Below are positions 12,564 to 13,942 of a DNA stretch of 32,000 nt, in pieces. Below the pieces are notes generated by a model. It had not been told where the DNA came from and made no database searches. It worked only from the letters and a program-made list of their open reading frames with translations. Both the position numbers and the translations under genes were made by a program. Location of the stretch: NCBI RefSeq assembly GCF_000172995.2, contig NC_014729.1, positions 1,500,001 to 1,532,000 on the forward strand, given 5' to 3'. The stretch comes from Halogeometricum borinquense DSM 11551 (GTDB lineage Archaea; Halobacteriota; Halobacteria; Halobacteriales; Haloferacaceae). Within the stretch, counting starts at the first letter, position 1. Every line of letters starts with the position of its first letter.

Positions 12564-13942
12564 AGCGCGTCAACACCTTCGAGGTCGTGCCACAGACCGA
12601 GAACGACAAAGAGTGCCTTCTACGGCTACTCGACGCCTCCGCCTCGCTGTGGAACGAACTGACCTACGAACGTCGTCAGAACTACTTCGGTAACGGCGAC
12701 GTGTGGGACACCTCCGAGTACCGTGGACAGTACAACGGTGTCGTTGGAAGCGCGACCGTTCAACAGGTCACGCGCAAGAACAGCGAAGCGTGGCGGTCGT
12801 TCTTCGCCCTCAAAGAGAAAGGCGAGTACGCCAACCCACCGTCGTACTGGGGCAACGAGGAGGACGGGCGCGAACTCCGCACCTACATTCGGTGCAACCA
12901 GTACACGATTGAGTGGGGGAAGCGTAGCCGTCTCGAAATCCCTGTTGGGCAAGAACTGAAAGACGAATACGGACTCGGCTACCACGAACGACTCCGCCTC
13001 GAAGTCCGAGGCAACCCGAAGTGGGACGGCAAACAGGGTCGTCTGGAACTTGAGTACGACGAAATGAGCGACACGTTCAGGGCTTTCCAACCAGTCACCG
13101 TCCCTGATTCTCGACTGGATTCACGGAAAATCGAAGATTTTCCTGAAGTCGAAAACGCTTCGCGTTTTCGGAATTCACCACTGGCTTCGGAAGAAGCCGC
13201 CCTCGACGTTGGCGCGAACAATCTCGTCGCCTGTTCCACGACCACTGGGAACCTGTACCTCTACGACGGTCGGGAGTTGTTCGGACGGTTCCGCGAGACG
13301 ACAGACGAAATCGCCCGCCTACAGTCGAAATTGCCCGAGAGACGCAGTCTCTCGGAATCACGGAAGACTTCGTCTTCCGGACGACTCCGCGAAGGACGCT
13401 ACTCCTCGAAACGGATTCGACGGCTGTACCGACAGCGGACGAAGCGCCGTGACCACGCACAGAACGCGCTGGTGCGCGACCTCGTTGAACGGCTGTACGA
13501 CGAGGGAGTGGCGACGGTGTACGTGGGCGATTTGACCGACGTGCTGGAAACGCACTGGTCGGTCAGGGTGAACGAGAAGACGCACAACTTCTGGGCGTTC
13601 AAGAAGTTCATCCACCGTCTCGCGTGCGTCTGTGAGGAATACGGTATCAGCCTCGAAGCCGAGTCGGAAGCGTGGACGAGTCAGACGTGTCCCGAGTGTG
13701 GCGACCACGAGGAGACGGTCCGCCACGGAGATACGCTGACGTGTTCATGCGGATTCGAGGGACACGCCGACCTCACGGCGTCAGAGACGTTCCTTCGAGA
13801 AAACAGCGATACGGAAGTCAGGCCGATGGCACGGCCCGTGCGATTCGAGTGGGACGACCACGACTGGTCGGGGAAACCACACCCTCACGAAAGTCCCAAA
13901 GAAGTGCGCACAAACCCGCAAGTTGCCTCCGTGGGTCGGTAG
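12560..13942 (+). CDS. tnpB: TnpB (IS605 OrfB / IS1341-type RNA-guided endonuclease)
   Basis: RuvC-I region [10 protein letters not shown], zinc finger CPECG...CSCG, Ruv[15 protein letters not shown]. The C-terminal [12 protein letters not shown]...[10 protein letters not shown] is typical of haloarchaeal TnpB, as far as I recall. Confidence 0.9.
13125..13170 (+). repeat. twin-hairpin module 2, inside tnpB
   Basis: GGAAAATC-GAA-GATTTTCC (13125-13143), a 6-nt spacer, then CGAAAACGC-TTC-GCGTTTTCG (13150-13170). Perfect stems. Flanked by GATTCAC (13118-13124) and GAATTCAC (13171-13178). Confidence 0.85.
13335..13379 (+). repeat. twin-hairpin module 3, inside tnpB
   Basis: CCGAGAGAC-GCA-GTCTCTCGG (13335-13355), a 5-nt spacer, then CGGAAGAC-TTC-GTCTTCCG (13361-13379). 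Perfect stems. Confidence 0.85.

Follow-up and report, generated by a model that had tools for sequence, protein, structure and literature searches.

Small hairpin-forming DNAs without a transposase of their own have been described from haloarchaea and from bacteria. The small mobile repeats (SMRs) of Haloquadratum walsbyi measure about 80-120 bp, with 80 bp for the shortest, and their family SMR-A (HqIRS42/43/55) is about 110 bp long with inverted termini of 23-31 bp (Dyall-Smith, Pfeiffer et al. 2011, PMC3119063). SMR-A copies lie mostly outside open reading frames (ORFs), possibly inactivate the insertion sequences (IS) they enter and leave no target duplication, and their mobilisation was called 'enigmatic' (PMC3119063). 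The 52-bp terminal-only PATEs (palindrome-associated transposable elements; HqIRS46, ISHwa23) are derivatives of IS605-type elements, which keep the near-terminal palindrome and the termini of their parent (PMC3119063), and for dimers of bacterial repetitive extragenic palindromes (REPs) a link to Y1 transposases of the IS200/IS605 type has been proposed (PMC3733652; Bertels and Rainey 2011). In the present study a 54-nt twin-hairpin module, B1, was analysed, which resides in the tnpB gene of an IS200/IS605 element in Halogeometricum borinquense DSM 11551; the whole stretch of 32,000 nt that was analysed (NC_014729.1, positions 1,500,001 to 1,532,000) is referred to as the window. A first-pass annotation of this DNA had taken the module for an insertion bracketed by a short direct repeat, a reading that is supported by the comparison of sequences. 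B1 is shown to be a real, recent, precise and site-specific insertion.

The letters of the region 13118-13198, with two perfect hairpins, the spacer between them, their flanks and a third hairpin further 3', were found exactly as the first-pass annotation had given them. The flanking repeat, which had been read as GA(A)TTCAC, exists, with GATTCAC at 13118-13124 immediately 5' of hairpin A, but its exact form is ATTCAC (13119-13124 and 13173-13178), and the boundaries of B1 can be slid by 6 nt, 13119-13172 being equivalent to 13125-13178. The stems of hairpins A and B are alike in their GAAAA/TTTTC cores and have the architecture of a REP-type doublet, and the outer arms of B1 are only loosely inverted. 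The insertion site reads ...GGAYTCAC^CACTGGC... and is situated about 10 codons 5' of the putative RuvC-I Asp of tnpB, to which B1 contributes 18 in-frame, stop-free codons, which would be read through. A Lys/Arg/Phe-rich peptide, which had been pointed out as unusual, is indeed encoded there, but is merely the translation of the GAAAA/TTTTC stem arms, and the third hairpin (13183-13198), though present 3' of B1, is not part of the insert, since it belongs to the host gene and occurs in clean copies, i.e. those without modules.

It is exactly these 18 codons that are missing from TnpB homologues with identities of up to 96%. The expectation that removal of the 54 nt would restore a homologue-like sequence was borne out, as in P0003, P0005-P0012 and others the sequence is ...DSRLD-SPLAS..., the gap being of exactly 18 aa, and at the DNA level clean copies read CTGGATTCACCACTGG with one ATTCAC only. 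A conserved segment of the same length in the homologues at large, named beforehand as evidence that would speak against an insertion, was not seen among the TnpB homologues. The alignment displays two exact 18-aa gaps, one at B1 and one at a second module of tnpB, B2; among 115 homologues B1 was present in eight and B2 in 12, always at invariant positions, and in one of the 115 B2 had a further 17 aa nested inside. The lengths of homologues at 85-95% identity include 460, 442-443 and 424-425 aa, in steps of 0, 1 and 2 x 18 aa. Two single TnpB homologues have different inserts at other positions, P0017 one of 20 aa behind residue 181 and P0085 one of 19 aa behind residue 415, which may represent further module families.

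Folded as single-stranded DNA (ssDNA), the 60-nt stretch of B1 reaches a predicted -17.4 kcal/mol (z = -4.4), a value as good as which was obtained in none of 200 shuffles, compared to z = -0.8 for the empty B1 site of a clean copy. The IS region of 2,061 nt contains six perfect hairpins of at least 8 bp with a 3-nt loop versus a mean of 0.067 in dinucleotide shuffles, and three twin hairpins versus 0.004 expected (1000 shuffles, maximum 1); the twin hairpin initially observed is correct and far beyond chance. When the 32-kb window was scanned for perfect hairpins, an unusual cluster emerged, all of it within one mobile element (11987-12009; 12199-12217 and 12225-12241; 13125-13143 and 13150-13170; 13335-13355 and 13361-13379). 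B1 itself is present in the window as a single copy only, no second one being found by a search allowing 3 mismatches. Far from any IS, at 21208-21257, the window displays another hairpin pair, GC-rich, of 7 and 8 bp, with 5-nt loops and 10 nt apart, which is without the C-GNA-G style treated below and is probably due to chance or a coding feature.

The age and precision of the insertion become apparent when B1 is compared with the genes around it. Between the window and hosts whose tnpB is only 73.5% (L022) or 83.7% (L004) identical in nucleotides, B1 shows 0/54 differences, and in hosts with tnpB 76-77% identical (L017, L021) 1/54, a near-identity with a probability of P = 6e-8 to 7e-5 given the divergence of the hosts. 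Lineage-specific single-nucleotide polymorphisms (SNPs) of the host are located as close as 5-11 nt to the left and 3-11 nt to the right junction of B1 (L022, L017, L029, L033). The SNP pattern of L032, where B1 is present, matches that of L067, where it is absent, on both sides of the junction, and the two IS copies, one with B1 and La (a module of the left end), the other with no modules, are 97.5% identical. The window IS is 94.8% identical to the clean copy L003 and equally to L023, a carrier of the same four modules, so that module content does not track the phylogeny of the IS. In a metagenome-wide scan 10/10 matches to B1 were at the same tnpB site, likewise all matches in genomes; all copies of B1 found are thus at one tnpB site, other than the dispersed and mostly extragenic REPs, and twin hairpins are rare outside IS200/IS605 regions. 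Because of the identity in diverged hosts, the SNPs near the junctions and the single site, B1 was repeatedly delivered or exchanged to one site with nucleotide precision, and it is neither an ancient feature nor one carried on long recombination tracts.

B1 has relatives of the same build. About 65 IS copies were aligned to a clean reference and about 100 related loci surveyed overall, and in the aligned copies twin-hairpin inserts were found at few fixed positions only, in at least nine families, some of which are nested. La (51 nt, 7 loci) and Lb (53 nt, 5 loci) use the same site in the left-end hairpin and Lc (loci L004 and L013) a further left-end site; T (51 nt, 18 loci) and M60 (60 nt, 2 loci) are situated in tnpA, and p794 (51 nt, 1 locus), M60' (60 nt, 1 locus), B1 (54 nt, 10 loci) and B2 (54 nt, 15 loci) in tnpB, while nested modules occupy the spacers of B2 and Lb. 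Families recur at unrelated sites and in other genera with 81-94% identity: an 86% copy of La resides in another tnpB element, on plasmid pHME505 of Haloferax mediterranei, where it occupies the right-end hairpin, Lc, present in the left end of L004, has a reversed copy in that of the right end of L080, just 3' of a TRAM gene in Halovenus salina stands a B2-like copy, and in Natrarchaeobaculum a copy of T is not surrounded by an intact tnpA. The density of perfect twin hairpins, as counted in 1.5 Mb of haloarchaeal DNA, is 31 times higher in IS200/IS605 regions (0.262 per kb) than outside them (0.0084 per kb), and scans of viral contigs yielded one unrelated terminator-like hairpin with the La pattern and none with the B2 pattern. 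The modules of 51-60 nt form one superfamily, which in haloarchaeal IS200/IS605 elements inhabits both genes, the TnpA-binding hairpins of the ends and, by nesting, the spacers of further modules.

One IS copy of Natrialba hulunbeirensis (L079, 9372-9470 and 10294-10872) accumulates at least six hairpin pairs, with modules nested in the spacers of Lb and B2. A mosaic family was met at L089 (18168-18215), L051 (12014-12060) and L079 (9398-9442), in which the second hairpin and its flanks are common (TGATGA-CGAGAG..C-loop-G..CTCTCG-AACCAC) and the first hairpins differ, which suggests that hairpin units are shuffled between families; in L089 a long inverted repeat of the host (GCCTCGGGGTC...GACCCCGAGGC) has the module in its loop.

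The hairpins of the modules have a common signature, which was counted over 73 distinct ones. A C-G pair closes the loop in 71/73, the loops GNA (29) and TNC (19) make up 48/73 as opposed to 17% in background hairpins, and purines prevail in the 5' arm of 64 hairpins, pyrimidines in that of six. On a single stem as many as six different loops are found, some of them exact reverse complements of one another (GCA/TGC, TTC/GAA, GGA/TCC), and stems change in a compensatory manner, as in hairpin A of B1 (GGAAAATC/GATTTTCC to GGAAACTC/GAGTTTCC) and in module T (GCGGAATC to GCGGGACC, paired with GGTCCCGC). C-GNA-G triloops are exceptionally stable mini-hairpins of DNA, and a preference for them is typical of DNA and not of RNA. 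From this loop style and the compensatory and flipped changes we read the structure as one that is kept up in the DNA and not in RNA or protein. Furthermore, the motif CGT[CT] occurs within 0-2 nt of the hairpin foot at 14/49 distinct outer ends, compared to 6% in the background (p = 7e-7).

In comparison with the clean copy L003 the IS of the window (Table 1) carries four twin-hairpin inserts (La 51 nt, T 51 nt, B1 54 nt and B2 54 nt), and its 2,045 nt are composed of a clean element of 1,835 nt and 210 nt in these modules. La is tagged with CGTC/CGTT, is absent from L001 and L003 and has the same site in all of its 7 loci. T, likewise at one site in its 18 loci, is inserted in frame between ...VPK and YRR... 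of tnpA, a clean homologue of which has 126 aa. B2 is tagged with CGTC at its 3' end on the opposite strand, and hosts a nested 51-nt module in L011 and L079.

The IS is widespread, being present at 85-93% nucleotide identity in more than 40 haloarchaeal genera. Its relatives are located 3' of TTAC and terminate in TCAA, as is proper to the ends of IS200/IS605 elements, whereas the window copy has the left flank CTGCG|GGAAATACGGGG... and not the canonical TTAC; its right end reads ...GGATGTCAA. The hairpins of both ends are near-identical (CCTCGCSC-TTYA-GSGCGGGG, with a mismatch). At the left, AAAG is positioned before the hairpin IP_L at 16-19 nt from the element start, and the intact form is TTAC, N15-AAAG, then CCTCGCCC-TTCA-GGGCGGGG; at the right, the hairpin has GAAT in front and a 10-nt tail, AGGATGTCAA, behind it, ending in TCAA. 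These ends (TTAC target, AAAG, GAAT, TCAA tail) follow the code of Helicobacter IS608. Sub-threshold Rfam matches at the 3' end of the IS were HgcC (26 bits) and sot0042 (21.6 bits). The host hairpin next to B1 was retained in 17/17 sequence variants, with covarying stems (GGCTTC/GAAGCC, GGCCTC/GAGGCC, AGCCGA/TCGGCT, GGCGG/CCGCC) and a hypervariable 4-nt loop, by which the encoded residue is changed (SEE/SHE/SSE); it may be a conserved nucleic-acid structure within tnpB and possibly part of the B1 target. Upstream, the reading of a 508-aa ORF (10504-12030) runs through the left end of the IS into La, and on the minus strand a small zinc-ribbon-like ORF (13818-14162; ...CPACGNE...) begins outside the IS and enters its right end. 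Since ORFs overlap both ends, the IS seems to have become lodged between two convergent ORFs or in their 3' ends.

Table 1. Coordinates of the host IS, its genes, ends and modules (positions in the window; B1 and its parts included).
Feature	Position	Strand	Description
Host IS200/IS605 element, IS1341-type	11949-13993	+	tnpA and tnpB; from alignment to L003 and L001 and BLAST to 100 related loci
Left-end TnpA-type hairpin IP_L	11968-12038	+	CCTCGCCC-TTCA-GGG^CGGGG, split by La; AAAG in front
Module La	11983-12033	+	51 nt; ACCAGAACGC-TAA-GCGTTCTGGT, then CCAGAC-GTA-GTCTG; in 3' arm of IP_L
tnpA	12132-12563	+	Y1 (HUH) transposase; Pfam PF01797, E = 5.8e-33; 143 aa, 17 aa of them from module T
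Module T	12193-12243	+	51 nt in tnpA; GCGGAATC-GAA-GATTCCGC, TGACCTC, GCGGAAC-AGG-GTTCCGC
tnpB	12560-13942	+	RNA-guided nuclease family; Pfam PF01385 and PF07282; 460 aa = 424 + 18 + 18
ATTCAC direct repeat, left copy	13119-13124	+	6 nt; sole copy in empty sites
Module B1	13125-13178	+	54 nt, twin hairpin in tnpB; hairpin A, spacer, hairpin B, tail
B1 hairpin A	13125-13143		GGAAAATC-GAA-GATTTTCC; perfect 8-bp stem, 3-nt loop
B1 spacer	13144-13149		TGAAGT, 6 nt
B1 hairpin B	13150-13170		CGAAAACGC-TTC-GCGTTTTCG; perfect 9-bp stem, 3-nt loop
B1 tail	13171-13178		GAATTCAC; includes right ATTCAC copy, 13173-13178
Host hairpin in tnpB	13183-13198	+	GGCTTC-GGAA-GAAGCC; 4 nt 3' of B1 site; present in clean L003
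Module B2	13331-13384	+	54 nt in tnpB, in frame after ...LQSK
B2, first hairpin	13335-13355		CCGAGAGAC-GCA-GTCTCTCGG
B2, second hairpin	13361-13379		CGGAAGAC-TTC-GTCTTCCG
tnpB 3' end and IS right end (omega-RNA region)	13787-13993	+	no module in window copy; inverted repeat I18
Right-end hairpin	13963-13984		CCTCGCGC-TTTA-GCGCGGGG; mirrors left-end hairpin IP_L

Inserts at coding sites were multiples of 3 in 7/7 cases, those at non-coding sites including one of 53 nt, and module-bearing tnpB genes are open at 442-461 aa; as the modules are often in frame, the transposon genes they entered stay open in most copies examined. In L079, however, the 51-nt insert p794, named after its clean-reference position 794, stands just 5' of a premature stop by which tnpB is cut to 110 aa, and a TAG in one p794 loop may be that stop. 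Halopenitus malekzadehii possesses three identical IS copies (L023, L024, L025) with the same four module types as the window, all at contig ends. The left flanks of L024 and L025 are different TTAC sites, and L023 starts at the contig end. Identical four-module copies at different TTAC sites show that the module-laden IS still transposes.

The comparisons show very small DNA elements of one architecture, which are specific for IS200/IS605 elements and mobile relative to their host. How B1 arrived at its site can be read in several ways. We would give an even chance to the reading that it is a non-coding, non-autonomous DNA element of the superfamily, similar to REP doublets or small mobile repeats, and spreads independently of its host IS. 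Selection of its hairpins would take place in the DNA, where they would act in single-stranded or cruciform form, and modules would pass by copying from one element to the next, apart from the host IS and without blocking its transposition. They may move as single-stranded hairpin DNA, the enzyme being most plausibly a Y1 HUH transposase, i.e. the TnpA of an IS200/IS605 element acting in trans, and the target would be unpaired DNA beside hairpins in the single-stranded form of the IS. This route is favoured because of the association with IS200/IS605 elements, the end-hairpin targets, the DNA-hairpin signature, the CGT[CT] tags and the left junction of B1, TCAC|GGAAAATCGAAG, which resembles the left-end junction of the IS itself, TTAC|GGAAAATTCGAGG. 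B1 likewise resembles the host IS termini in its first 11 nt and its last 3-4 nt, and the layout of its 3' half is like that of a right end (4 nt, a 21-nt hairpin and an 8-nt tail ending in TCAC). A number of observations weigh against this view. No enzyme is tied to the modules, whose hairpins are perfect with triloops, unlike the mismatched TnpA-binding hairpins of this IS, and perfect palindromes allow no strand discrimination, unlike known TnpA and RAYT (REP-associated tyrosine transposase) substrates, nor is the strand bias between GNA and TNC loops (29 to 19) strong. A common 4-5-nt target was not found across the module families, so that the simple IS608 rule does not fit, and the single-site specificity of B1 is greater than what a 4-5-nt target could give. 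The CGTC tag is missing from B1 and T, the ends of B1 being TCAC| and GAATTC|, and a DDE transposase could have left the short repeats of 2-6 nt at many junctions as its target-site duplications. A preference for hairpin targets was not significant, with 5/8 sites in hairpins of at least 5 bp versus 37% of all positions (p ~0.13). The module ends were also inspected for IS608-type guides and targets, and no consistent tetranucleotide or guide pairing was recovered across families.

Alternatively, B1 could have originated once, e.g. in an aberrant TnpA event at the left end of the IS with subsequent palindromisation, and then have been spread by homologous recombination or short-patch gene conversion and lost by slippage between the ATTCAC copies, with no dedicated transposition. 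Haloarchaea are prone to recombination, B1 is found at one site only, in flanking sequence conserved over about 10-22 nt, its left end resembles that of the IS, all combinations of modules occur, as if segments reassort, and the ATTCAC repeats and hairpins would favour precise deletion. We nevertheless consider this course of events rather unlikely, as SNPs 3-11 nt from the junctions in lineages with tnpB 73-77% identical leave too little homology, and the sister families La, Lc and B2-like are situated at non-homologous sites. The junction repeats (ATTCAC in B1, ACT/ATT in B2, AGT/AAT in T, TCA in nested T2, CG in La, Lc and M60) could instead point to ultra-short elements of the type of SMRs or MITEs (miniature transposable elements with inverted repeats), in which a DDE transposase would read the outer stem arms as inverted repeats and cut and paste them with duplications of 2-3 bp, here 6 bp; the two hairpins have similar outer arms, which so form inverted termini, and MITEs and SMRs of Haloquadratum land preferentially in IS605-type elements (PMC3119063). 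However, the repeats vary inconsistently between 0 and 6 nt, are lacking in Lb, p794 and the module nested in Lb, and their left copy is often unlike the target sequence, SMR-A is described as being without target duplication, and the DNA-hairpin signature with its C-GNA-G and flipped loops is not a feature of MITEs. Matching transposase ends were not seen either, though the parent IS was not searched for, and cut-and-paste by a DDE transposase is judged improbable.

Perfect stems, compensatory changes and reverse-complemented loops would also be the products of template-switching, and hairpin A resembles the tip of the IS left end folded back, but a birth of the hairpins de novo at each site, by template-switching in replication or snap-back synthesis (quasi-palindrome correction), is confronted with identical 54-nt sequences in diverged hosts and with a recurrence of the same families, 81-94% identical, in further genera and at sites unrelated to one another, a convergence not to be expected. 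As an origin of individual copies it is largely refuted and we give it hardly any credence, though the process could persist in maintaining stems and flipping loops. That the module acts in RNA, as an archaeal intron of the bulge-helix-bulge type, as a stabilising or attenuating hairpin of the mRNA or as a piece of a small RNA, is suggested by its place inside a transcribed gene, by strong hairpins, which form in RNA too, and by bacterial REPs, which are often RNA elements (PMC3733652). Yet the predicted ssDNA fold consists of two perfect stems without bulges, other than the bulge-helix-bulge geometry with its two 3-nt bulges around a 4-bp helix at the junctions of exon and intron, inserts at coding sites all keep the frame, which would be needless if they were spliced, modules also occur on either strand in end hairpins that do not look transcribed, and a search of Rfam over the IS had no match on any module, which makes a role in RNA very improbable. 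Least credible of all is an adaptive insertion of 18 residues into TnpB: the codons are in frame and stop-free and kept in intact ORFs of several genera, but conservation is at the level of nucleotides and stems, loop changes alter residues freely (A/G, S, K/T), and the same architecture occurs in non-coding DNA. In an AlphaFold2 model of the 460-aa TnpB (87 sequences), which is weak overall with a mean pLDDT of 63.7 and a poorly modelled RuvC half, both inserts, B1 and B2, are coil with pLDDT <50.

If B1 and its relatives are truly mobile DNA, about 50 nt of hairpin DNA would suffice for precise, site-specific spread between diverged transposon copies, biology of the REP/REPIN kind would be extended to Archaea, and it would become easier to tackle how the small mobile repeats of haloarchaea are mobilised. 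More tentatively, and with somewhat more doubt than trust, it can be proposed that haloarchaea harbour an undescribed class of site-specific mobile DNAs of about 50 nt, counterparts of REPINs with pairs of C-GNA-G triloops, which home to fixed positions of IS200/IS605 elements, in frame in TnpB and TnpA among others, and are moved as ssDNA hairpins by a Y1 or another hairpin-specific enzyme; as target-specific mobile elements these would rank with the smallest known, and to the transposon they would be parasites or partners. The modules explain recurrent length variants of 17-20 residues in haloarchaeal TnpB and TnpA, mark surface positions at which TnpB, a scaffold for genome editing, tolerates insertions, and can mislead gene callers, alignments of protein families and phylogenies.

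The known systems differ in how near they come to these modules. The cyanobacterial SDR (small dispersed repeats), reportedly described by Elhai and co-workers in 2008, are said to be very small hairpin-forming mobile repeats of 21-27 nt, which nest in repeats and mobile elements, and would differ from the modules in this length, in their cyanobacterial occurrence, in not being twin hairpins and in not being specific to IS200/IS605 elements. SMR-A shares more with them: both are haloarchaeal and free of a transposase, have families dissimilar in sequence with one architecture, and can hit an identical position with different families (PMC3119063). Like La, Lb and Lc, SMR-A strongly prefers IS605-type transposons or PATEs and enters near-terminal palindromes (PMC3119063). 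Compared with SMR-A by its description only, the modules are distinct in having 51-60 nt and two perfect triloop hairpins, and their common families lie in frame in tnpA and tnpB and leave the IS mobile. B1 in particular, with 54 nt and loosely inverted arms, has neither the size nor the prominent inverted termini of SMR-A. Insertion into near-terminal palindromes without target duplication, as in SMR-A, is shown by La, Lb and Lc; B1 itself is found in an ORF and has a 6-nt flanking repeat.

With the CGTC- or GTAG-tagged REP dimers (BIME/REPIN; Rickettsia RPE-4 and RPE-6) B1 has in common paired hairpins with stems of 8-9 bp in one unit (PMC3733652), and as in the modules, these may be hetero-dimers of different stems, the intragenic ones of which encode about 20-30 residues and are tolerated (PMC3733652). 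Their CGTC tag, placed 5' of the hairpin (Di Nocera et al. 2013, PMC3733652), is enriched in many of the sister families here, but absent in B1. REPs are bacterial, high-copy, dispersed and mostly extragenic, with loops of 4-5 nt and spacers of usually 20-100 nt (PMC3733652), whereas in B1, which has one target, the loops measure 3 nt and the spacer 6 nt, and neither a CGTC nor a GTAG tag is present. A RAYT gene was not identified, all tnpA genes seen being of the canonical IS type, and in the literature searched no report of archaeal REP dimers or of REPs or RAYTs in haloarchaea was found, nor a description of twin-triloop-hairpin modules of 51-60 nt in frame in haloarchaeal tnpA or tnpB. The terminal-only PATEs are of the same size class as B1, without coding capacity, in an IS200/IS605 context and possibly mobile, but have one hairpin instead of two, and the hairpins of B1 (GGAAAATC..., CGAAAACGC...) bear no relation to those at the ends of this IS; judged against the ends of this IS only, B1 thus does not have the IS605-derived palindromes and termini of a PATE. 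B1 is therefore close to all three and lacks defining features of each, namely the size and termini of SMR-A, the tag, copy number and distribution of REPs and the parent palindromes of PATEs, and for this reason, and being undescribed in the literature found, it is placed as a variant beside the known small hairpin repeats.

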